Of a stretch of DNA of 64,000 nucleotides, positions 1,656 through 58,738 are shown one piece after another; the first letter of the stretch is position 1, and each line of letters opens with the position of its first letter. This DNA is from a virus, in the UHGV virus genome UHGV-0018639, one strand, 5' to 3'. A program made the position numbers and the translations under genes. A model generated the notes under the pieces. It did no database searches and had not been told where the DNA came from. It saw nothing but the letters and a program-made list of their open reading frames with translations.

Positions 1656-4600
1656 ATGGCGCAAATACATTATAATTGTCTCGTTCCGGGCTGGACAGCA
1701 GATCAATGGAATGGGCAAGTAAATATAGGTTTTGAGCTTTCTTATAATAAAAACACAAATGAAACCACTGTAATTTTTACCGCTAATGAATGTTATCACA
1801 AGTATTTTGGTATTAATGGATGGGGTACTGAAGCCACCACTAATATCACAATTTATGCAACTGATAACACAGGTGATAAAAAAACTGGCTGGTTTTATAC
1901 TTACGGATATACTGATGGTGGAACAAAACAATTCAATGCAACACCAAGTAATATTGTTGTAAAGCACTCAAATGCAATCGGTGCAAAAAGTATCATTATT
2001 GAAACTTCGACTACAATAAAGGTGTATTTGAAAAAAGGTGTCCAATCAACTGGCACTGGTACTTATTCTGAAGCAGTTGCTTTACCAGCATCTCCAGTCA
2101 GCGTGCCGACTAGTTTTATGACCTCTGCGCAATCAATAATCATTCCGACTGGCTCAATTCCTTTGAGCTGGTCGGGTGCAACGGCTGGTATAAATAATGC
2201 AATAAAAGGTTATCACCTTTTCTGGAAAGTCGGCGGCGCACCAACAGCTAGTTCATATACAGATAAAATTGATGTTTCAAGTGCATCTTATACTATTAAA
2301 CTAAACTTGGGAGATAATCAACGAGGGCAAACGGTCTATACAGCAATTCAGACTTATGGTGAGATGGGGGTCAATTATGATTCTGACTTATTGGCTGGCC
2401 CTTCTGTTAAAATAAACTCACGACCAGCCGCGCCGGCCCTTTCGGCAACAAATGCAACATTGCCGTCAACAGTGGGTGCTTATAAGGTAAAAGTTGTGGC
2501 TGGTAAGGATAATGATCTATCACAAACTATTCAAGTAAGGCAAGGAGACGATGGCGAAGCGCAGGCAAGTGGAACGCAGTTCTCTTTTAATGGCGCTGGC
2601 ACTTTTACATTCTACTCTTTTGATGGATTAGAAAATTCAGCTACTGGAACCTCTATTACTATTATTCGTAATTCTAAGCCTGAAGTTGGCTCAATAAATA
2701 CGACTTTCTCAGCATCAATAAATACAAATGATAAGACTTTTTCAACAGCTCAACTCAAAAACGCAGATTCAAAAAAGCTAACTGCGGCGCAATGGTATAT
2801 ACGTTCAGCGGCAACTTCCGCTGAAATTTCAAGCGCAGCCGCGAGACAAATTACAACTGGCACAATTACAAACTCGTCAAGCGATGATAGCTCAAGTTGT
2901 ACTTTGATTATCAATCCATTAGCTTCTACTCCAATTGTTAATCCCGGCTACTACTATCAGATTGGCGTTCAACTCAAAGATGAGTATGAGTATAGTGATA
3001 TTGCTTGGTCAAGTAATATAAAGCAAATTTATGGCCAGCTTTCACTTACTTTGAATTCTATAACCGCTACTCATTTTGAAACAGGAATATCAGCGGCTTA
3101 TGCGTCTTATTATCGTATACCAAAAATAAATTTAAGCTGGAAATCGCCTGCTACTTTTCCAACTGGTCTTTCATCTTTATGGTATTCAATTTTCTATTCA
3201 ATAGATGCAGGTAATTCTTGGAAACAATGGAATAGTGGTATCCAATCACTTACTGCTAATACAACTTATACTCCAACAATTGATTTTTCAAGTGTAGGCC
3301 GTGGTGACTTTTTAGCAAAAATTGTTTTGTATGATAAGAAAGATGGCAGCAACCAGCAACTTGAGACTTCTATGTCAAACAAATTGTATTATTCACCAGA
3401 TCCGCAATGGATGGCTGGTTCAACCCCAACATTGGCCTATACAATAGAAGCGGACGACAACCGCACTTGTGTCCGTCCAAATTATAGTTCAAAAGGAACC
3501 AATGCGCTTACTTTATCTATTCCTTATCCGAGTACGATTAATACACTACTTCAAACTAATAAGGCTGACTTACAATATGCAATATATCTTTATCAAGATG
3601 GTAAAGATGTAAGTGCTGAAGTTCAAAGCAAGCAAAAAATTACGATAGGCGATAGTGCTGCAACAGAGACTGGCCCACTAAAACTTAATGTTGCTTACAG
3701 CAAGTTAACAAATCTTTATTCAACTTTTTTTGATAGCGATAAAACAAAATGGATTGGCCCTTATAATATGTCCATTATGGTGCGATTCTTTGATGCTTTT
3801 GAGGAATCAATTGATACGCCTAAAATGAGTTTTGTTTTAGACTTTCGTGAGAAACCAAAAAAAATTGAAACTTTAAAAATAGGTCGTGATGGCGTTCTGT
3901 CAAATAATTATGCCGCAGTAGCCGCAAAACGAAGCGCTAATACTGTAATTTTTCCGACTAGCTCTATTGACGCTGAAAAATCAATTTTAGTCGGTGAACA
4001 TTTAATAATTGCTTTTCAGAAGCCAGCCCTAAGCTATGAAGCACAAACAATTGGGCAATATATATTTACACTTTATAATAGTGAGCATAGTGCAATTTAT
4101 ACATATAGAACAGCCGATATTATTTCAGCTTCAATATATGGTGAGTCATCACTAAACTGCGTAGTAATTCCCGCGGCTGATTTTCTCAGTACAGCAACTA
4201 CTTTTTATGCAACAATTCGTCAGCAAGATAGTCAATCTTATAATGATAACATTAGTATCGAAAGCGATGGAAGTAATTCATTATGTGGTGGCTCATTAGA
4301 ACAACCAATAATCAATTTTGAAATGCCGGAACTATCTGTAAGTGGTGGTTCAATGAACATAACTGTCACTAAGAAGACGGCTTCTTTGAGTTGGAGCGGA
4401 ATTCAAGCAAAATATAATTCCTATTTGCGTACTATGGTATATGATGACATATCTTATAGCCCGCTTTGTAATTTATTTTTACAAATAAGTGAAAATAATG
4501 ATTTTAGTTCATCTTTTGAACTTCCATTGGCTAGTTACTCAAGCACTAATAAAACCTATAAGCTGGAAGCAAATGAATTTTCAAAAACTCTGAGTGATTT

Positions 4601-4967: not shown

Positions 4968-5045
4968 TGCACGTGAACTACTAAAATTTGATTTTTCCTT
5001 CAATTTATGTTATACTATTTATATATAAAGTAAAGGAGGATTAGT

Positions 5046-5426
5046 ATGCAGCTAGCCGAAGTAATACAATTTCAAACTGTATATAACACACTTGCTGAAG
5101 CAAAGCTTCCATTCAAGGTGGCTTATAAACTGAACAAGTTATACGAAGAAGCTCAAAAAGAAGCTGAGTGGTACAATAAAGAATTTAATTCAATCTTGAA
5201 TGAATATGGAATGAGAGACGAGAGCGGCAATTTCATTCATACCACTGATGGCCTTGCAATAAAAATACAAGAGGGTCGTGAAAGTGAGTGCCAAGCAAAG
5301 GTTCAAGAACTCGCGCAAGTTGATATAGAACTGAAATCTCCAAAACTTACAATGGATGATCTTTCAGCAATAGATGCTGAACTAACTGTGCGTGAGGTTG
5401 CAATTTTGATGAATTTCATAGAATAA
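5046..5426 (+). CDS. hypothetical protein
   Basis: RBS aaaggagga upstream. Followed by a rho-independent terminator. Confidence 0.45.
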   Translation: MQLAEVIQFQTVYNTLAEAKLPFKVAYKLNKLYEEAQKEAEWYNKEFNSILNEYGMRDESGNFIHTTDGLAIKIQEGRESECQAKVQELAQVDIELKSPKLTMDDLSAIDAELTVREVAILMNFIE

Positions 5427-50348: not shown

Positions 50349-50434
50349 GCGGGACTGGTGTAATTGGTAGCCACATTTGATTTAAGCTCAAATGGCCTTT
50401 GGTCGTAAGGGTTCGAGTCCCTTGTCCCGCACCA
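50349..50434 (+). tRNA. tRNA-Leu(UAA), type II
   Basis: Acceptor gcgggac/gtcccgc. Anticodon arm tttga-tttaagc-tcaaa. Long variable arm. 3' CCA encoded. Confidence 0.7.
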
Positions 50435-50501
50435 ATTGCCGTTTTCAGTGGCGGCTTAGAAACAGTTCTCAAAGAAGTATCAAAAAGAAAGGAGAAAATG
50501 A

Positions 50502-51404
50502 ATGTCATTTTTCGTAAGAACAGTAACTGATCGGTATGGGGATACAAATACTTATCCTCGTTGGGGCAGAATAGTGGGGTGCGCTATAGGGGCACTACTT
50601 GTTCTAATTATAATTCTCTCTTGTTTTACTAAAGTTCCTACTGGCAATACTGGTATTGTCACTACATTTGGTAAGGTTGAGAATTATACATTGGATTCAG
50701 GCTTTCATCTAAAAGCTCCGTGGCAGAAGATAGTTAAGATGGATAATCGAGTACAGAAGCAGAGTATTGATTTGATGTGTTTCTCTTCTGATATTCAGGA
50801 AGTCTCTATGACTTATACAATTAACTTCCAGATTAGTAAGAGCGATGCAATGACGATTTATTCTACCATCGGCACTCATTATTATGAAACCGTTATTATG
50901 CCTTGTATTACCGAGTCAGTTAAGACAGTTTGTGCACGATATACCGCAGAAGAGCTAGTGGGCATGAGAAGTGAACTTGCTTCAGCAATAGAGGAAGATC
51001 TTTCTGAGAAATTAATTAATTACAACATAGAGCTTGTTTCTACTTCTGTTGAGAACATGGATTTCACTGATGTCTTTACTGATGCTGTTGAAGCAAAGCA
51101 GGTTGCAGCACAGAATAAGCTCACCGCACAGACTCGTGCTGAGCAGGAAGTTATTGAAGCCGAAGCAGCGGCTAAGGTTCAGGTAATTCAGGCACAGGCT
51201 GATGCAGATGCAATGGTGGCTAAGGCTCAGGCCGAAGCAGAAGCGACTCGAATTCGTGCAGAAGCCGAAGCAGAAGCCAACGCGAAGGTTGCCGCGTCTC
51301 TAACAAATGCGCTAATTGATTATACTTATGCACAGCATTGGGATGGTAAGTATCCTACCTATTATGGTGGTAATGGTACGACTCCTGTTATCGATCTTAG
51401 ATAA
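50502..51404 (+). CDS. SPFH/band-7 (prohibitin/HflC-like) membrane protein
   Basis: N-terminal TM. VPTGNTGIVTTFGKV..GFHLKAPWQKIVKMDNRVQ SPFH core. Ala/Glu-rich coiled-coil tail. Confidence 0.65.
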   Translation: MSFFVRTVTDRYGDTNTYPRWGRIVGCAIGALLVLIIILSCFTKVPTGNTGIVTTFGKVENYTLDSGFHLKAPWQKIVKMDNRVQKQSIDLMCFSSDIQEVSMTYTINFQISKSDAMTIYSTIGTHYYETVIMPCITESVKTVCARYTAEELVGMRSELASAIEEDLSEKLINYNIELVSTSVENMDFTDVFTDAVEAKQVAAQNKLTAQTRAEQEVIEAEAAAKVQVIQAQADADAMVAKAQAEAEATRIRAEAEAEANAKVAASLTNALIDYTYAQHWDGKYPTYYGGNGTTPVIDLR

Positions 51405-51643
51405 ATAAATGAGCTGGCATCTCAATAAACTGCCATTAATATGGGTCAGTAGCGAATCGGCAAACGCAACGGGCTGTAAACCCGTCTCCTTCGGGAATAA
51501 TTGGATCGACACCAATCTGACTCACCAAGACGCAGCGGGTGTTAGATTTTCTACTGGGGAATACTGTGTCTAATATAGAGAAAATCATTTTTGTGAAATT
51601 CAAGTATATTCTAGCTAAATATACCGTAAAAGCCGGATTATAT

Positions 51644-51719
51644 GCCCAGATAGCTCAGTTGGTAGAGCAGGGGACTGAAAATTCCCGTGTCGCTGGTCCA
51701 ATTCCAGCTCTGGGCACCA
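51644..51719 (+). tRNA. tRNA-Phe(GAA)
   Basis: gcccaga acceptor. D-arm gctcagttggtagagc. Anticodon loop ctGAAaa. T-arm gctggtccaattccagc. CCA encoded. Confidence 0.8.
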
Positions 51720-51891
51720 TTTTGGGATTGTTTACTGCTTCTTGTTCCCTTGATCGTGAAAATGCATGAGTAGCGATTAAAAAACATCTAAGCGGCGTGC
51801 ATCGTTGGCCATCTGAGGGCTGCGTTAAGGCTTAAAAGGCCACAATCGATTGGGGTTGGTAAACCTCCTGCGGGGAAGCTTCCATTATTAT

Positions 51892-51974
51892 GGGCAAGTG
51901 GTGGAACTGGTAGACACAACAGTCTTAGACGCTGTCGCTTCGGTATAGGGGTTCGAGTCCCCTCCTGCCCACCA
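51892..51974 (+). tRNA. tRNA-Leu(UAG), type II
   Basis: Anticodon arm acagt-ctTAGac-gctgt. Long variable arm. T-arm ggggttcgagtcccc. One A-C mismatch in the acceptor stem. Confidence 0.6.
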
Positions 51975-52094
51975 TAAGTCTCCAAGAGGATGGATTTCGG
52001 CTAAACTACCACCGGCGCACAATGTGTGATATGTGGCTTTGTCATTTGTGGAGACTATAATAAATAAAAACGAAAGTAAGCCGACTTTTGAAAT

Positions 52095-52178
52095 GCAGGA
52101 TTGGTGGAATTGGCAGACACGGTGGATTCAAGTCCCACTGCTTTTAGCATAAGAGTTCAAGTCTCTTATCCTGCACCA
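52095..52178 (+). tRNA. type II tRNA, probably tRNA-Leu(CAA)
   Basis: Acceptor gcaggat/atcctgc. Leu-like D-arm tggtggaattggcagacac. Anticodon loop ttCAAgt with one mismatch closing the stem. Long variable arm. Confidence 0.55.
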
Positions 52179-52307
52179 TTGGTGGTCACTAGGGTTGTAT
52201 TCTTCTCAAGCCAAGTGAGTAGTGTTGATGAAACGAAATAGATGGTAAACAAATAATTGAGATTAAGTATGCAACCCGTTGTATTATTTTAATGAAAGGA
52301 GATAAAA

Positions 52308-52892
52308 ATGTCAGCAAATTTTTATATTAGCGATATCCATTTTGGGCATAAAAATATAATAAAATTTGATCATCGTCCTTTTAGTAGTGTTGATGAAATG
52401 AACAGCATACTTATTGCAAATTGGAATGATATAGTTGGTCACAATGATAATATCTACGTTCTTGGTGATTTTTGCTGGGGTAAATCTGATGAGTGGATTG
52501 ATATTCTGTCTCAACTCAAAGGTAATAAGTATCTCATTGCTGGTAATCACGACTTGCGTAATCCTCCTTCAGATGTGCGGCGTTTCTTTCAGGATTGGCG
52601 CGACTACAAAGAAATTTTTGACAATGGCCGCAAGGTTATAATGTGCCATTATCCAATTCCGTTCTATAAGTCAGACTATAATTCAGATACTTATATGTTG
52701 TTTGGTCATTTGCACACAACATTTGAGAATGGGTATATTGAGGATTTGCGCGAACGGATAGAGCACGATCCATATGAGCGTTCAGCAAAAAATCTTTGCC
52801 AGTTTTATAACGTTGGTTGTATGATGCCTTGGATGGAATACAAGCCGCACACGTTGGATGAGATTGTTGAGGGGTTTGGTAAATATCACTAA
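52308..52892 (+). CDS. calcineurin-like metallophosphoesterase
   Basis: DIHFGH, LGDFCWG, GNHDL, CHYP..GHLH motifs. RBS aaaggagat. Confidence 0.7.
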   Translation: MSANFYISDIHFGHKNIIKFDHRPFSSVDEMNSILIANWNDIVGHNDNIYVLGDFCWGKSDEWIDILSQLKGNKYLIAGNHDLRNPPSDVRRFFQDWRDYKEIFDNGRKVIMCHYPIPFYKSDYNSDTYMLFGHLHTTFENGYIEDLRERIEHDPYERSAKNLCQFYNVGCMMPWMEYKPHTLDEIVEGFGKYH

Positions 52893-52902
52893 ACCCACAT
52901 AT

Positions 52903-52991
52903 GCGGGATGAACTCAGACGGCTCTGAGACCGGTCTTGAAAACCGTGGGCAGGTGAAAGCTTGTGGGGATCGACACCTCCGTCCCGCGCCA
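52903..52991 (+). tRNA. atypical type II tRNA-Ser(UGA) with 8/4-like acceptor/T-stem and 6-bp D-stem (allo-tRNA/tRNA-Sec-like architecture)
   Basis: Anticodon arm ccggt-cttgaaa-accg is nearly identical to E. coli tRNA-Ser(UGA). The 5' gcgggatg pairs with cgtcccgc (8 bp). D-arm ctcaga-cggc-tctgag is a 6-bp stem with a 4-nt loop. The variable arm is 20 nt. T-stem gggg/cctc is 4 bp with T-loop atcgaca. Ends gCCA. Confidence 0.6.
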
Positions 52992-53087
52992 GTATGCGGA
53001 GTCAACCAGTAAGGTGCTGGACTCGCCTGCTAAGCGATGTGTAGCTATTCGGCTATTTGGTTCGTGTCCAAGGCTCCGCGCCAATAT

Positions 53088-53163
53088 GTGTCCTTAGTCC
53101 AATCGGTAGAACAACAGACTGTTAATCTGTAGGGTATAGGTTCAAATCCTATAGGACACGCCA
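53088..53163 (+). tRNA. tRNA-Asn(GUU)
   Basis: Acceptor gtgtcct/aggacac. Anticodon arm acaga-ctGTTaa-tctgt. T-arm ataggttcaaatcctat. CCA encoded. Confidence 0.75.
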
Positions 53164-53166
53164 TAT

Positions 53167-53243
53167 GCGCCATTAGCTCAGTTGGTAGTAGCACTTGATT
53201 TTTAATCAAGGAGTCCGCGGTTCAAGTCCGCGATGGCGCACCA
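53167..53243 (+). tRNA. tRNA-Lys(UUU)
   Basis: Acceptor gcgccat/atggcgc. Anticodon arm cttga-ttTTTaa-tcaag. T-arm cgcggttcaagtccgcg. CCA encoded. Confidence 0.75.
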
Positions 53244-53264
53244 TAATTTTTGGAGGAAGTAAAA

Positions 53265-54385
53265 TGAAATTAACAGAAAAGGGGGTTGCCGCGTTTGCCG
53301 CAGCGTTAGAGCACTGCCCCAATGAATCTTTTTCAGCGGCCAGCCTTTCAGCAAAGTGCGGCGCCTCTATTTCTGCAGCTACACTCAATGGTATTGTCAA
53401 TCAGGGACTTATGACTCGACTTGGTGGTTCGCCTGTCAAGTTTGAATTAGTGCCTAACGCGAAAGACTTGTATAGCAAGGCGCGCGAAGATAAGCCAGCC
53501 AACGAAAATCTTCGTAAAGCACAGGCCGCGAAAAATGATGAGTTTTATACTCGGTATCAGGATATCGAAAAAGAAGTCTTACAGTATGACTTGCGTGGCA
53601 AAAAGATTCTGTGCAATTGCAATGATGGGTTAGATAGTGAATTTACAAATTTCTTTATGGCAAATTTTGAAGCACTTGGACTCGCCGAAGTCGTTTGTCT
53701 GAGTTATGAGAAAGAAAAGCTTGCTTTCAAAACGGTTAGGCGCACACCCACAAAGCCCGATATAAAAGTTGAAGTAGCACGGATTCCCCTTAAAGGAAAC
53801 GGGGCTTTTGATTCATGCGAAGGTCGAGAAGCTTTAGCGGCCTGTGATGTTGTTATCACTAATCCGCCGTTCAGTCGGTTTCGTGAATTTGTCAATTTGA
53901 TTTTGTCTTACAAGAAAGACTTTTTGATAATTGGCAGTAAAAACGCTATTACTTATAAAGAGTTCTTTCCTCTTCTAATGAATGGCAAAGTTCATATTGG
54001 CAATTATAATGTTTCTACTTTTAAACAGCCCGATGATACTGAGAAGAGATTTGGAAACATTGGTTGGTTTACGACCCTTCCTGTCGCAAAGGCCACACAG
54101 CCAATTCCTTTAACAGCAACCTACGATTCCGTCAATTATCCTGCCTATGATAATTTTCATGCAATCGAGGTAAGCCGCACAGCTAACATTCCAAAAGATT
54201 ATGATGGTGTGATGGGCGTTCCTATTTCATTCCTTGATAAGTTTTGTCCTACTCAATTTAAAATTGTTGGATGGAGCAGACATAATGATGAAGGAATGGA
54301 CGGCGGATATTGGACGGGCGGTTGTGCAGATGCTACTATAAATGGTAAACGAGTTTATCGTAGAATTTTGATTCAGAAAATTTGA
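53265..54385 (+). CDS. N6-adenine DNA methyltransferase
   Basis: Catalytic motif IV DVVITNPPFS. AdoMet-binding-like ILCNCNDG. RBS ggaggaag upstream of MKLTEKG. The ORF-track start at 53195 lies inside tRNA-Lys and was rejected. Confidence 0.6.
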
Positions 54386-54410
54386 TTTTTATCAAAATTT
54401 TCGATATAAT
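54382..54410 (+). promoter_or_regulatory. sigma70-like promoter (conserved phage motif)
   Basis: aaaaTTTGATTtttatcaaaattttcgaTATAATatatatagaaagttgagag. Confidence 0.55.
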
Positions 54411-54553
54411 ATATATAGAAAGTTGAGAGAAATGGTTCTAACAAGCCAGCGTGCGCGCGAGTAAAAGTTGTTAGTAAGCGGTTGGCATACGTGATAAGCC
54501 ATTGCCCCAGCGAGAAGATTTAATAAATCTTCTTTGTTGGCGGTGTTCAATTT

Positions 54554-54627
54554 CGGGGATGTGGTGTAATGGTAGCACACTTGATTTGGGGTCAAGAAGA
54601 GTGGTTCAAATCCAACATTTCCGGCCA
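54554..54627 (+). tRNA. tRNA-Pro(UGG)
   Basis: Anticodon arm cttga-ttTGGgg-tcaag. Acceptor cggggat/atttccg with two G-U pairs. Imperfect T-stem. CCA encoded. Confidence 0.55.
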
Positions 54628-54634
54628 TAAAAAT

Positions 54635-54721
54635 GCTGAGTTCCCATAGTGGTCGATTGGAGCGGTTTTGTAAGCCGCAGACTTCGTGTCCGCATCAGTT
54701 CGAATCTGATACTCAGCTCCA
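54635..54721 (+). tRNA. 87-nt tRNA with long variable arm and UGU (Thr-type) anticodon in the 7-nt loop register
   Basis: Perfect acceptor gctgagt/actcagc. Perfect T-arm atcag-ttcgaat-ctgat. Anticodon arm gcggt-ttTGTaa-gccgc, which needs a U-G closing pair; GUA lies one nt 3'. 15-nt variable region agacttcgtgtccgc. CCA encoded. Confidence 0.55.
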
Positions 54722-54725
54722 CTAT

Positions 54726-54801
54726 AAGAGAGTAGCCCAATAGGTAAGGCAGCAGTCTCCAAAACTGAAGATTAAAGGTTCAATTCCTTTCTCTCTTGCC
54801 A
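54726..54801 (+). tRNA. tRNA-Trp(CCA)
   Basis: Acceptor aagagag/ctctctt. Anticodon loop ctCCAaa. T-arm aaaggttcaattccttt. CCA encoded. Confidence 0.65.
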
Positions 54802-54843
54802 ACAATTTCATTTTTTCATTTTTCAAATTTCCTTTCTTAAAAT

Positions 54844-54872
54844 TTGACTTTTTCAAAAAATCTTGATATAAT
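54844..54872 (+). promoter_or_regulatory. sigma70-like promoter driving the large noncoding region and tRNA-Met
   Basis: aaaaTTTGACTttttcaaaaaatcttgaTATAATatatac. Perfect -35 and -10 boxes with a 17-nt spacer. Confidence 0.6.
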
Positions 54873-54896
54873 ATATACATAAGATAAAGAAAAGAA

Positions 54897-55616
54897 AAAG
54901 TCAAAAGGAGGACGATGCTAGTGCCACCTACACGTGGTATCCTCTGTTTTCGCTAAGAGCGCTGGCATATATTCAATTAAATAATACTAACTCAGTGAAG
55001 ACGGAATTCGATGTTCCGGCTGAGAAATTCTAGCTAGCACAGCAGAAACGAAACAAGGATACTTGTGGATACTGGACTGGGAGGCCATCGAGAGATGAGC
55101 CGAAGTAGAGCGGTTGCTCAAGTGGGAAGAAGAGCAGGAATTGTGCTGAGTGAATCGCAAGTAAACGCAGCCGTGGAGTGGCGGGCGCAATAGATAGCTT
55201 GGTGAATAGCCAAGCCGAATCCAAGTTAGGTTTTAGTTGGTGACTGTGACAATCCTTGGAAAAGCCAATAAGCTCGTTCCGTTGAGACGACAGGGAATGT
55301 GAAATCTGTCTTTGACACTCTACAGTATCCGAGTAGCGGAACACAACGGGGACTTTAGATTAAAAAGATGTTGACAGTAATAGAAATTACTACTTTCTGA
55401 ACATCCCGTGAAAGGTAGAGGTAATCAATCCTCTGGCGGATTAGGCGACATTAGACACTTGGGGTTATCCAAGACTAACAAGTCAATGTTGTTGCTGGGG
55501 TAAGAAGTGTATGGGCGACGGCCTGTATGCTCAGACTTATCTCCCGCGTGGCAGAATATGCTTGAAGGTTTATCGAGGTAGGGCGAAGGCCCAGTAATAT
55601 TTAGTTGGATTTATAT
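54897..55616 (+). ncRNA. candidate large structured noncoding RNA (about 720 nt) co-transcribed with tRNA-Met
   Basis: No credible ORF. GC content is locally elevated with many local hairpins. Strong consensus promoter upstream. tRNA and terminator immediately downstream. Context matches that reported for GOLLD/ROOL-class large phage ncRNAs. Confidence 0.35.
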
Positions 55617-55689
55617 GGCAGGAAGAGAAGGTTCTCCGTTTGGCCTCATAAGCCAGACTTCGTAGGTTCGATTCCTACTCCTGCAACCA
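55617..55689 (+). tRNA. tRNA-Met(CAU) (possibly initiator-like; alternatively a lysidine tRNA-Ile2)
   Basis: Anticodon arm tttggc-ctCATaa-gccaga. T-arm gtaggttcgattcctac. Acceptor ggcagga/tcctgca with a 1:72 G-A mismatch. CCA encoded. Confidence 0.6.
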
Positions 55690-55714
55690 AGGAAGATGCT
55701 TCTTCCTCCGTTTT
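55690..55714 (+). terminator. rho-independent terminator
   Basis: ggaaga-tgc-ttcttcc followed by tccgtttt. Confidence 0.55.
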
Positions 55715-55857
55715 AAAAAATGTCTTGAACGACAGGAGGTTTTGCTTATGGACATAACAAAATCTAATGAGGACTTTAGTCCAACGAACAAGGCAAAGAG
55801 TTGGGCTTCTCTATAAAAAAGCCCTCGTTTAAAAAAAATGAAAGGAAGTAAGAAAAA

Positions 55858-56286
55858 ATGAAGTATTATAGTGATGTTCTTCATAGTTTATTTGATACTC
55901 AGGATGCGCTCGAAAAAGCCGAAGCTGAGAAGAAAGAAAAAGATGACGAAAAAGTTCGTCAGAAGGAAAATGCTGATAAGCTCAAGGCCGAGGATAAGAA
56001 GCGTTTTCTTGAGCTAAGAGAGAGGTATTTTAAAGCAAGTGTTGAGTATGAAGCATATTTTGATAAATTGCTGAATAACTACTCATTTAACACCATAATG
56101 GGCTGGGTGTCTGAAGCGGCTACTAAAAAGACCCAGACCCAGACCCAGATTAAGACGATAGATCAGACGGCTGAAAGTATTTTTGATGCTTGCAAGTCAG
56201 CTAAAACTGTCAAAACCGCAAAAACGGCGCGTGAGCCTGAAAATTTGGGAGAAATTCTTATTCGTATTTTTGAGGATATGCAGTAA
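55858..56286 (+). CDS. hypothetical protein (charged coiled-coil N-terminus)
   Basis: RBS gaaaggaag upstream. 142 aa. Confidence 0.35.
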   Translation: MKYYSDVLHSLFDTQDALEKAEAEKKEKDDEKVRQKENADKLKAEDKKRFLELRERYFKASVEYEAYFDKLLNNYSFNTIMGWVSEAATKKTQTQTQIKTIDQTAESIFDACKSAKTVKTAKTAREPENLGEILIRIFEDMQ

Positions 56287-56289
56287 GAA

Positions 56290-56847
56290 TTTTAAATAAA
56301 TCAGGTTACTTGATCATCGGGTTTCCTGCGGAGTTAAAGCTAAAACGTTAGCGGTGAATATGGCCATTCCCGCAAGCTCGGCGACTTGTTAGGCAATCGC
56401 GCTGATGTAAATTATTGATAAGGGAGCTTTGGTATAATTTATTCACTGGGGCTTTCCAAAAGTCGGACTCAAGCCTAAACTGAGTTCGCAGTGCTGAGGT
56501 CGGTATTCGCTCGGAGAGGATGCGTTATTGAGCTAATTAGATTAGCATCAATGTGAGGCAACGGTGGCCAACTCTTAGAGAGCCACGCGATAGAGTTATG
56601 TTAAAAGGCAATACTCAGTATCGGTGCTACTAGGGTTGATAGACAAGTAGTAAAAGTCAGGTGAAGATAATACCGGCTGACATAATTGGGACGTAGCTAT
56701 AGGCGTAGGCCGTGCCAGAACTAAAGTGTGCGGCACACGAAACCCAAGTCAGATGCGGGCGATTGAAACGGCGCCCTCAACCCATATAAGGTTTTACAAG
56801 AGATTTTCCTTGCGTTAGGCTAAAAAATCTCTTTTCTATATAAATTT
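56290..56847 (+). ncRNA. candidate large structured noncoding RNA (about 560 nt) immediately 5' of tRNA-Gln
   Basis: No ORF. Noticeably higher GC than the flanking sequence. Numerous hairpins. Ends in tRNA-Gln plus terminator. Second such region within 2 kb. Confidence 0.35.
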
Positions 56848-56922
56848 AGAGGTATAGTGTAATTGGCAACACATCGGCCTTTGACGCCGTATTTATAGGT
56901 TCAAGTCCTGTTACCTCTGCCA
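56848..56922 (+). tRNA. tRNA-Gln(UUG)
   Basis: Acceptor agaggta/tacctct. D-arm gtgtaattggcaacac. Anticodon loop ctTTGac. T-arm ataggttcaagtcctgt. CCA encoded. Confidence 0.7.
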
Positions 56923-57029: not shown

Positions 57030-57653
57030 ATGGAAGAATTAGGTCTGTTATTGGGTTTGGGAGATGATGCTAACTATCAGCTTGCTAATCCAAGCCTGTT
57101 AGCGTATTATAAAGAACTCAATGAGCGTCGTCTCTGGCTCGATTGCGAGGTAGATGATGAAGCGATAGGTGATATGTGCCGCCAGATTATTCATTGGAAT
57201 AAGGAGGATGACACAATAGAGCCTTCGAAGAGGAAAAAGATTATTATCTATTTTGTCAGCCCCGGTGGTAGTTTAGACAGCTATCTATGGCTCAAAGACG
57301 TAATAAATCTGAGTATTACTCCAATAGTTGGCATTATGATGAGCCGCACAGCTAGCGCGGCTGCTCTTATTTACCTTCATTGTCACGAGCGTTATGCTCT
57401 TGAAAGCGCAAAGATTTTGTTCCACTACGGTTCAATTTCTCTTGCACAGGACGCCGCGAATGCGATTGAATCGATGAAGAAGTATGAGCAAGAAGTTGGG
57501 AAGTTTGTTGATGTAATTCGTGAGCACTCTGACTTTTCAGGCGAATATATTCGTGATAAGTTGGTAAAGGATTGGGAGCTTACGGCTGATGAAGCTCTTG
57601 AGCACGGCATTGTTCAAAAGATTGTAAGTGATATCAGCGAACTTTGGAACTAA
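57030..57653 (+). CDS. ClpP-family serine protease-like protein
   Basis: ClpP signature IYFVSPGGS. Ser region MMSRTASAAALIY matching GxAAS(M)G. His region ILFHYG matching IHQP. RBS aaaggagga. Confidence 0.6.
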   Translation: MEELGLLLGLGDDANYQLANPSLLAYYKELNERRLWLDCEVDDEAIGDMCRQIIHWNKEDDTIEPSKRKKIIIYFVSPGGSLDSYLWLKDVINLSITPIVGIMMSRTASAAALIYLHCHERYALESAKILFHYGSISLAQDAANAIESMKKYEQEVGKFVDVIREHSDFSGEYIRDKLVKDWELTADEALEHGIVQKIVSDISELWN

Positions 57654-57665
57654 AGGAGGACTCCT

Positions 57666-57986
57666 ATGGATAAATATACTGGCTATTACGAATGGCGCCC
57701 ATCAGAGCAAGGGCTTGAGGACTTTTATTCTGGCTTTTTTACTCCTGCGGGGATGGGTCTGGTAGAAAACCAGTATTTGATTATCTATGACGCTGATGGC
57801 AAAGTTATAGATAAATATTTTTGTAAGAACAACGAGTTTGAGAAAGTTCATTATATGACACTCCAAAGCGATTACTGCGGCGTTATCAAACCGCGCAATG
57901 TGTATCAGGAACTAGCAATTCACGCACTGTTAGATAGGCGTGTTCCTGTAAAGGCGCTGGGTGGTGTTTTTGGTTCGGGTAAATAA
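57666..57986 (+). CDS. phoH: PhoH-like ATPase, exon 1 (ends in Walker A GSGK)
   Basis: IKPRNVYQELAIHALLDRRVPVKALGGVFGSGK parallels PhoH I.P.t.gQ..yi.a......vfgiGpAGtGKT. Stop immediately after the K. Confidence 0.6.
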   Translation: MDKYTGYYEWRPSEQGLEDFYSGFFTPAGMGLVENQYLIIYDADGKVIDKYFCKNNEFEKVHYMTLQSDYCGVIKPRNVYQELAIHALLDRRVPVKALGGVFGSGK

Positions 57987-58212
57987 CTTGCCCCTTCTTA
58001 GGGCGACCTAAGAATGAAAATCGCGTGAATTGCTGGAAACCTAAGCCGCGAGGTATGGTAATCAGCAGCCAAGCCGTTTAACAACGGAAGGTTCAACGAC
58101 TATCCCGACAGGGAGTAGGGAGCAATCCCGAAGTGCGCGACAACTTTCAAAGTTGATGATATAGTCTAATCCCCTTTTGAAATATCGGGAAACCGAGGGT
58201 ATAAATGAAGGA
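57987..58212 (+). mobile_element. ORF-less group I intron in phoH (boundaries approximate)
   Basis: About 225-nt non-coding insert exactly at the P-loop. Contains ggtatggtaatcagcagccaagcc, resembling the Tetrahymena intron segment GGUAUGGUAAUAAGCUGACGG...CAGCCAAGUCC (P5/P6-J6/7). Also contains gatgatatagtct. Confidence 0.55.
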
Positions 58213-58738
58213 CTTCCTAATGAGCGGTGCCTGTTTCAGTCTTATCGAAAAAGGCATCTTTGAAAAACTCGTATATATACGCCCTAACATTACACTTGAA
58301 GGTGTGCCTGACATCGGCTATCTCAAGGGTGGAATGGATGAAAAACTTGAATGGACTTTAGCTCCATTATGGGATAAGTTCGGTGGCCGCGAAGCTACTC
58401 AAAATCTTGTTGCTTCTGGCAAGATTGAACTTGTGGCTTTGCCTTTTATTAAAGGTCGTAGCTTTGAGAACAGTATTATCTATGTAAGTGAAGGTCAAAA
58501 TATAACCCGCAAAGTAGCTGGTAATATTATAAGCCGCGCTGGTGAAAACACTGAGATTTGGATAAATGGCGACTATCACAGTCAAACTGACCGTAGAATG
58601 TTTGAGATTGATAATGGTATGCGCGCAATGGAAGAGACTCTGAAGGGTAATTCATTATATGAAACCCTTTATCTCCCAATCACGGAACGTTCGGCTGTTG
58701 CACAGCTTGCTGGAATTGTTTGCAATACTGAAAATTGA
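58213..58738 (+). CDS. phoH: PhoH-like ATPase, exon 2
   Basis: (K)DFLMSGACFSLIEKGIFEKLVYIRPNITLEGVPDIGYLKGGMDEKLEWTLAPLWD; ELVALPFIKGRSFENSIIYVSEGQNIT; GENTEIWINGDYHSQTD. All three match the PhoH core. Confidence 0.65.

Follow-up and report, generated by a model that had tools for sequence, protein, structure and literature searches.

The phoH-like gene of the virus genome UHGV-0018639, contained in a 64,000-nt stretch of DNA that was analyzed as a whole (hereafter the window), is very probably interrupted by a 227-nt self-splicing group I intron, which lies within the codons of the PhoH Walker A motif and is probably a remnant of a mobile intron devoid of its homing endonuclease gene (HEG). 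An initial annotation had proposed that phoH is split inside its Walker A motif by a small group I intron without an open reading frame (ORF), and the proposal was borne out on all of these points. The insert matched the Rfam group I intron family RF00028 with 88.0 bits (gathering score 50, E 4.1e-21) at positions 57971-58189, covering model positions 1-253, i.e., the full model. When the whole window was scanned against 4227 Rfam families, this was the only intron match, the others being a ROOL RNA and tRNAs. Intron-less alleles of the gene in six related contigs (L001-L006) had the same 846-nt coding length and differed from the window by a single insertion of exactly 227 nt. The parts of the interrupted gene are as follows.

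57666-57980 (+): phoH exon 1, codons 1-105, last codons GGT TCG GGT (G-S-G), from the ORF list
57981-58207 (+): ORF-less group I intron, 227 nt, probable subgroup IA type, from RF00028, the empty alleles and covariation
58208-58738 (+): phoH exon 2, codons 106-281 and stop, first codons AAG GAC (K-D), with the PF02562 match

The interrupted phoH gene and its splice junction

The joined exons (57666-57980 and 58208-58738) form a coding sequence of 846 nt for a protein of 281 aa. The spliced product matched the PhoH family PF02562 with 97.7 bits over residues 74-261 (gathering score 27), while exon 2 alone scored 81.3 bits and exon 1 alone gave no match; it also matched phrog_2765 (2e-60) and the solved PhoH structure PDB 3B85 (E 2e-11), in agreement with the initial identification of the gene as PhoH-like. 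Exon 1 was colinear with positions 5001-5315 of the intron-less allele L001. A search of 5.8 billion proteins yielded 292 homologues, most of them uninterrupted and of ∼275-281 aa. Among these, P0001, with 95% amino acid identity, is uninterrupted and exactly 281 aa long, and its contigs show the same gene order of ClpP-like protease, phoH and a 563-aa ORF. The possibility raised in the initial annotation that the two ORFs correspond to separate proteins in related phages was thus answered by a single protein in the relatives.

The intron is positioned between Gly105 (GGT) and Lys106 (AAG), inside the Walker A loop G-x-x-x-x-G-K. As described initially, the upstream ORF (57666-57986) ends with LGGVFGSGK followed by TAA, and the PhoH core resumes in a downstream ORF (58205-58738, MKDFLMSGAC...IRPN, PF02562 81 bits alone). 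The terminal lysine and stop had been taken as the end of exon 1, but AAA and TAA are the first six bases of the intron; likewise, the ATG at 58205-58207, taken as the start of the second exon, comprises the last three intron bases, its G being the terminal omega-G. The insert had been placed at the right locus, and its limits were corrected from 57987-58212 to 57981-58207. Only two in-frame joins give a single terminal stop, after G58207 (GSGKDFLMSG) or after G58210. The 3' splice site was assigned to the position after G58207 because of the CUU/AAG pairing in P10 and the existence of the intron-less allele, and comparison with the empty site identified G58207 as the terminal omega-G.

Joining the exons restored an in-frame junction, as had been expected, with the sequence G-S-G-K-D instead of the anticipated GSGKT. 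The motif reads G-G-V-F-G-S-G-K-D and departs from the canonical Walker A consensus G-x4-G-K-(S/T). In an alignment of 21 homologues, G103, G105, K106 and D107 were invariant across the junction. Asp replaces Ser/Thr in these codons (57960-57980 and 58208-58213), and the G-x-G-K-D form is found in all 21 aligned homologues, in 68 loci and in the PhoH of Lactococcus phage 949 (G-A-G-K-D); the solved PhoH 3B85 has GSGKT. Hence, the Lys-Asp pair is a property of this PhoH clade, a divergent PhoH subfamily with a putative ATPase activity.

The spliced frame showed a ratio of nonsynonymous to synonymous divergence (dN/dS) of 0.021-0.029 against the six intron-less (L001-L006) and three intron-bearing (L007-L009) relatives, at a synonymous divergence (pS) of up to 0.6. 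The interrupted phoH is under strong purifying selection, and the intron must therefore be removed. The last ∼230 nt of the gene (58508-58738) were 100% identical to exon 2 of L007, with 74-94% identity over the rest of the gene; this pattern is a recombination mosaic among co-occurring phages.

Ribozyme structure and covariation of its helices

Nine introns were aligned with short exon flanks retained and the ORF in the P8 loop removed, and a hand-drawn P1-P10 structure was mapped onto the alignment. The predicted elements of the window intron are listed below.

57977-57993 (+): P1, exon GGGU (57977-57980) with guide GCCC (57990-57993); the U57980.G57990 pair marks the 5' splice site
57984-57986 (+): in-frame UAA two codons into the intron, closing the false "exon 1" ORF
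57987-57989 (+): P10 guide strand CUU, just 5' of the P1 guide, pairing with exon-2 AAG (58208-58210)
57996-58013 (+): P2 hairpin with GCGA tetraloop; both-sided changes in five of seven pairs, 95% of cells pair
58021-58027 (+): P3 5' strand, pairing with 58134-58140; 100% paired, columns 54/247 G-C in five and U-A in four
58031-58092 (+): P4-P5-P5a (58031-58067) and P6-P6a (58068-58092) domain, alignment helices; P4 invariant
58098-58102 (+): P7 5' strand, pairing with 58162-58166; five pairs, invariant in 9/9, without covariation
58103-58129 (+): P7.1 (58103-58114) and P7.2 (58118-58129, GCAA loop) between P7 and P3', a 29-nt insertion relative to the Rfam consensus
58134-58140 (+): P3 3' strand, alignment helix with 58021-58027
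58141-58155 (+): P8 hairpin, 6 bp with a 3-nt loop (UCA), the HEG site in sister introns; columns 255/265 U-A in five and C-G in four
58156-58166 (+): J8/7 and P7 3' strand (AUGAUAUAGUC), in agreement with the Rfam consensus gAAGAUAUAGUC; one variable base in nine sequences
58171-58207 (+): P9 region with a CCC/GGG stem (58171-58173 with 58197-58199), a CGG-GAAA-CCG hairpin (58186-58195), the tail UAUAAAUG and omega-G 58207

In the mapped structure, 94.6% of the cells paired, as against 32-48% when the 3' partners were slid by 1-3 columns. Both-sided changes were observed in 13 pairs, a number that was reached by none of 500 shuffles. Compensatory changes were distributed over P1, P10, P2 (five pairs), P3, P5a, P6a (one pair, G-C to U-A), P7.2 (two pairs) and P8, and one-sided changes were found in P7.1. 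P3 crosses P7 and thereby forms a pseudoknot. Relative to its relatives, the window copy retained every core element, its differences being confined to loops or preserving the pairs; it had the highest Rfam score among all copies examined, and the z-score of its minimum free energy was -2.87. P7 is predicted to be the guanosine-binding helix, on the basis of general group I architecture.

The pairing between exons and intron was found to follow synonymous codon changes in phoH. The U.G pair of P1 was present in all nine aligned introns, and columns 5/21 were G-C in six and U-A in three, tracking the Ser codon TCG or AGT; the guide accordingly reads GCCC(C) opposite TCG and GCCAC opposite AGT. 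In L112 and L113, the exon sequence GCGGU stands opposite the guide GCCGC. The P10 partner follows the Lys codon (AAG with CUU, AAA with UUU), columns 15/327 being C-G in five introns, U-A in three and U-G in one, and P10 reaches 5 bp in L054, L057, L094 and L100. This covariation between exon and guide is regarded as the most telling evidence for a functional ribozyme.

No plus-strand ORF of at least 30 aa was found inside the window intron, its P8 loop having just 3 nt, as the initial annotation had stated. In other lineages, an in-frame stop also occurs within the first nine intron codons. The two motifs quoted initially are present, ggtatggtaatcagcagccaagcc at 58052-58075 and gatgatatagtct at 58155-58167. 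The former is indeed a core segment, but it covers P5'/J5-4/P4'/P6 rather than the J6/7 first suggested. The two motifs represent the universal core segments P5'-P4'-P6 and J8/7-P7', which the Tetrahymena intron also contains. The likeness to Tetrahymena extends to the universal group I core only, and the P7.1/P7.2 helices and the nearest relatives point to subgroup IA and to introns of Firmicutes phages. P7.1/P7.2 are a hallmark of subgroup IA. The window intron could thus be grouped into subgroup IA owing to these helices and to the BLAST similarity with introns of Herelleviridae phages, with IA2 in particular as the candidate.

Following the standard group I scheme, the whole phoH gene would be transcribed, and the ribozyme would fold with P1 (GGGU/GCCC) beside the P3-P7 pseudoknot, the P4-P6 domain, P7.1/P7.2, P8 and P9. 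Free guanosine would attack after U57980, and the freed 3'-OH of exon 1 would then attack after omega-G58207, with P10 (AAG/CUU) keeping exon 2 in place. After ligation, the mRNA would read ...GGT/AAG GAC... (the slash denotes the junction here and below), with the junction TTCGGGT/AAGGACTTC, and would encode one 281-aa protein with the G-S-G-K-D loop. The UAA two codons into the intron would stop ribosomes entering the unspliced RNA.

Site states, probable endonuclease loss and alternative readings

Close relatives with 92-97% PhoH identity and the same synteny, several of them from one metagenome, were compared along with further copies from viral and metagenome contigs, ∼20 alleles in all. 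All collected intron copies were inserted at the identical position, GGT/...G/AAR GAY. The site was empty in L001-L006. In L111, the intron is 1061 nt long and the endonuclease frame (2501-3337) is open; in L007/L098 (1059 nt), a 1-nt deletion causes an N-terminal frameshift in the HEG; and in L009 (936 nt), the HEG carries an internal deletion of 120 nt. ORF-less copies are of 232 nt (L008/L104), 234 nt (L096) and 227 nt (window), those in L008, L104 and L096 having been independently assembled in three other datasets. The ORF in P8, of ∼270 aa, encodes a LAGLIDADG endonuclease (PF14528 LAGLIDADG_3, E 1e-8 to 7e-13) and was found in L007, L009, L057 (1481-2320), L054, L094, L100 and L111, with its stop codon within the 3' strand of P8; the P8 loop measured 722-869 nt in L007, L009, L054, L057, L094 and L100. 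All occupied alleles can be told from the empty ones by two synonymous differences, one on either side of the insertion point, TCG GGT/AAG versus TCA GGT/AAA (in L001, TTCAGGT/AAAGATC), and the bases concerned are precisely those paired in P1 and P10.

The four site states of empty, intact HEG, decaying HEG and ORF-less appear to be the classical pattern of invasion by a homing element followed by decay and loss of its endonuclease, and the window copy would represent the endonuclease-less stage, as judged from its relatives. Having no endonuclease ORF, the window intron is itself a member of the lineage and not a mobile composite. No free-standing endonuclease gene was found beside phoH in the window, where the neighboring genes code for ClpP, SPFH, phosphoesterase, methyltransferase and unknown proteins. 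The window copy is not self-mobile, but it could be copied into empty sites with an endonuclease from a co-infecting phage. Collaborative homing, in which ORF-less introns are mobilized in trans, has been described for a free-standing endonuclease gene of the same genome; in the window case, a co-infecting phage with a HEG-bearing allele would have to supply the enzyme.

The direction of this change could also be the reverse, the ORF-less form being ancestral and the LAGLIDADG gene having entered the P8 loop later in some lineages, so that the window intron never had a HEG. One accepted way in which mobile introns originate is the entry of an endonuclease gene into an ORF-less intron (PMC3984707), and the window P8 loop (UCA) bears no recognizable HEG remnant. 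Against this, the P8 loops of L008 and L096 retain AAACAAAAGTTG, a 12-nt stretch that matches the last codons and the stop of the L009 HEG exactly, and at least those copies therefore arose by HEG deletion. Further, each of the sampled phoH lineages includes HEG-bearing copies, the HEG tree follows the host-gene type, pointing to an old association, and the window clade itself holds intact, frameshifted and internally deleted HEGs, i.e., a decay series. An ancestral ORF-less state is hence considered unlikely. It would be far less plausible still that the element is a dead relic, an intron that no longer splices within a phoH that has become a pseudogene in this phage. Such an end would suit an element that is past its mobile phase, having lost its endonuclease; it is at odds with a dN/dS of 0.025 over both exons, which indicates strong selection on the joined frame, and with the intact core and top Rfam score of the window copy.

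The least credible of the alternatives is that two genes are present, one for a 106-aa protein and the other for a PhoH fragment of 177 aa that has a translation start of its own, with no need for splicing. A Shine-Dalgarno-like GAGGG is located 5 nt upstream of the AUG at 58205, and gene callers annotate two ORFs in related contigs. The intron 3' end GAGGGUAUAAAUG (58195-58207) resembles a ribosome-binding site with a start codon, which is the reason why gene callers start the false 177-aa "PhoH" ORF at 58205. However, homologous introns that interrupt other genes in other phages end in the same conserved GAGGGUA...AUG, and this closing sequence therefore belongs to the ribozyme. Two separate genes would also sever the P-loop between G and K, whereas close relatives encode a single 281-aa protein, and the spacer scores highly as a ribozyme and shows covariation.

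Certain points weigh against the preferred reading of a self-splicing remnant of a mobile intron. Splicing has been deduced from sequence, covariation and purifying selection, which also leaves some room for the relic. P4 and P7, both fully paired, and the P9 region are invariant, and are neither supported nor contradicted by covariation. The nine aligned sequences amount to about five lineages, and the compensatory cells are thus not independent events. As the window P8 loop has no trace of a HEG, its loss in the window copy is argued from relatives, and the HEG of the window clade has ATA at the position of the ATG start of L054. Taken with the evidence above, a self-splicing intron that has lost its endonuclease nevertheless remains by far the most probable interpretation.

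The wider intron family and its counterparts

A search with the endonuclease identified 62 relatives. The same site with an intact endonuclease was found in diverged phoH genes of the GKD type with 36-59% identity to the window protein (L057/L103, L094, L100, L112 and L113), and the lineage of L054, L062, L090 and L108 also bears this intron. In this latter lineage (L054 at 1935-3519), in-frame TAG codons occur in the phoH exons and the intron HEG at positions that are mostly Gln in homologues, which suggests TAG-to-Gln recoded phages with a HEG adapted to the altered code. HEG relatives with 38-40% identity reside in PIN-PhoH genes (L114, L115) that belong to another type of phage; the junction there is also at the G/K boundary but within a canonical G-T-G/K-S. 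Similarity among the endonucleases groups by host-gene type. Rfam at its gathering threshold gave no match in L054, L109 and L112-L115; it missed the HEG-bearing loci because the ∼0.85-kb ORF breaks the model. The 5' core of L114 alone scored 54.6 bits to RF00028, and that of L112 scored 47.6 bits, just below the threshold. Among 16 metagenome pattern matches, L093, L095, L097, L101, L102 and L105 look like chance matches, and L106 and L107 likewise fell outside the phoH-intron alleles.

Additional loci were observed outside phoH. In L106 and L107 (minus strand, about reverse-complement positions 313-339 and 1540-1566), ...CATAGTCTAGCTCGAAACCGAGGGTATGTGCCATG resembles the J8/7-P7-P9 3' end of group I introns; its surroundings show no similarity to PhoH, and a gene other than phoH may harbor a related intron there. 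L114 contains a second LAGLIDADG ORF (192-1007, 271 aa) that is 36-41% identical to the phoH-intron HEGs and directly follows a fragment of an AAA_24 ATPase gene, possibly as part of an intron in a further ATPase gene. In L116, an endonuclease (2276-3124) with 50% identity to the HEGs of PIN-PhoH introns adjoins a RecD2-like helicase and is flanked by two ORFs of 566 and 365 aa without assigned function.

Among 50,697 GenBank phage records, the nearest endonucleases were the LAGLIDADG proteins I-812II and I-MsaII (34-38% identity over 95% of the length), encoded in the intron of a RecA-like recombinase gene of Staphylococcus Kayvirus and Silviavirus phages. Phages with the RecA intron include 812, fRuSau02, Team1 and Romulus/Remus, and the record EF136585 was used for comparison. 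Similar to the phoH intron, the Kayvirus intron is inserted in the Walker A motif, G-L-T-G-S-G/K-S-T, at the equivalent G/K position. The DNA at its site is GGCAGTGGT/AAGAGT, and its guide GCCAC is the same as in L054, L094 and L100; nine bases, AGTGGT/AAG, are common to the Kayvirus RecA site and L094, with AGTGGT/AAA in L054 and L100. The 812 intron and the L100 ribozyme have a common stretch of 81 nt, from P3 to the P5 extension, with 75% identity. The Kayvirus intron shares the conserved ribozyme core and carries its HEG toward the 3' part, just before J8/7 and P7'. It differs in its host, a RecA-family recombinase gene, and in its size, being 1369 nt long with large extensions at its periphery and a HEG of 322 aa, as compared with the 227 nt of the ORF-less window intron. 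For the Staphylococcus phage RecA, the joined protein has been observed by mass spectrometry in a cultured phage (PMC5618024).

The resemblance suggests that the RecA and phoH introns belong to one lineage targeting P-loop DNA in different ATPase genes, a hypothesis that is kept as such because the RecA HEG is a distant outgroup to all phoH HEGs. Such a lineage would be able to colonize different gene families because the motif is common to many ATPases. In its broadest form, the proposal is that one old intron-HEG lineage homes to P-loop DNA at the G/K of G-x-G-K and has colonized GKD-type PhoH, PIN-PhoH (GKS) and Staphylococcus RecA-like genes; that it persists in TAG-recoded phages; and that a single phage population, presumed to be of gut or rumen type, keeps the empty, intact-HEG, decaying-HEG and ORF-less stages. 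This scheme as a whole is viewed with confidence and doubt in equal measure.

The introns of T4 td, nrdB and nrdD, of the SPO1 DNA polymerase gene and of Twort orf142 belong to subgroup IA2, and the Twort ribozyme has a crystal structure. Small classical phage introns of this kind resemble the window intron in having P7.1/P7.2 between P7 and P3' and an early in-frame stop. Over its 3'-terminal 50-55 nt, the window intron shows ∼92% identity to introns from phages of Enterococcus, Listeria (P100-like) and Staphylococcus (Twort-like). The window intron is unlike the classical phage introns in its phoH host gene, its different insertion site and its very compact length. PhoH is also interrupted by inteins, as in Campylobacter phage IBB_35 (PMC3322345) and in 21 bacterial PhoH proteins (PMC4760082). 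Like the lineage of the window intron, inteins are self-splicing and driven by homing endonucleases, and as a class they favor ATPase P-loop motifs; they differ in splicing at the protein rather than the RNA level and show no sequence relationship.

The PhoH inteins came to light in full-text searches of an open-access library, in which no phoH gene with a group I intron was described. When two spliced PhoH proteins served as tblastn queries, matches were in a single piece, and no split phoH was seen in the best 40 cultured-phage records for each, out of some 2,000-3,000; none of 60 sampled BLAST matches to the intron lay under a PhoH annotation. Against the phage records, blastn of the 2-kb region matched the intron core only, at most 6% of the query, indicating no known close phage. 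The 177-aa ORF had no exact match in the assembly index, and the intron 3' end joined to exon 2 had no match in bacterial genomes, which gave no clue to a prophage or host.

Other features of the window surround the gene. A ClpP-like protease gene (57030-57653, +; PF00574, 66 bits) stops 12 nt before the phoH start, and the order of ClpP, phoH and the 563-aa ORF is kept across the whole phage group down to ∼50% PhoH identity. Farther upstream is an array of 13 tRNA genes (50349-56922, +), namely, three for Leu and one each for Tyr, Phe, Ser, Asn, Lys, Pro, Thr, Trp, Met and Gln, interspersed with genes for an SPFH/Band_7 protein (50502-51404), a metallophosphoesterase (52308-52892) and an EcoRI-like adenine methyltransferase (53195-54385). 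Inside the array, ∼2 kb upstream of phoH, lies a full-length ROOL RNA (RF03087, 54967-55612, +; 268.9 bits, E 2e-60), which is conserved in the sister contigs L006 (331-977) and L008 (303-950).

LAGLIDADG-bearing phage introns, their ORF-less derivatives and insertion into catalytic codons are all well known; the novelty is in the phoH host gene and the site. phoH is added to the phage genes colonized by group I introns, and insertion into the codons of a nucleotide-binding loop follows the rule for homing elements, whose targets are the most conserved DNA. The initial suggestion that the intron would disrupt PCR-based surveys of phoH is speculation, this PhoH clade being remote from the marine phoH marker. 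Gene callers break this phoH up into an orphan of 106 aa and a truncated "PhoH" of 177 aa, and annotation that takes introns into account is needed for the widespread group of uncultured phages (∼100-130 kb) concerned. With all core helices in 227 nt, the ribozyme is a compact candidate for engineering. The G/K site common to the phoH and Kayvirus RecA introns provides a testable case of spread via a conserved protein motif. Closely related contigs, moreover, contain alleles that are empty, carry an intact or a decaying HEG, or are ORF-less, and together they offer a natural snapshot of the life cycle of a homing element.

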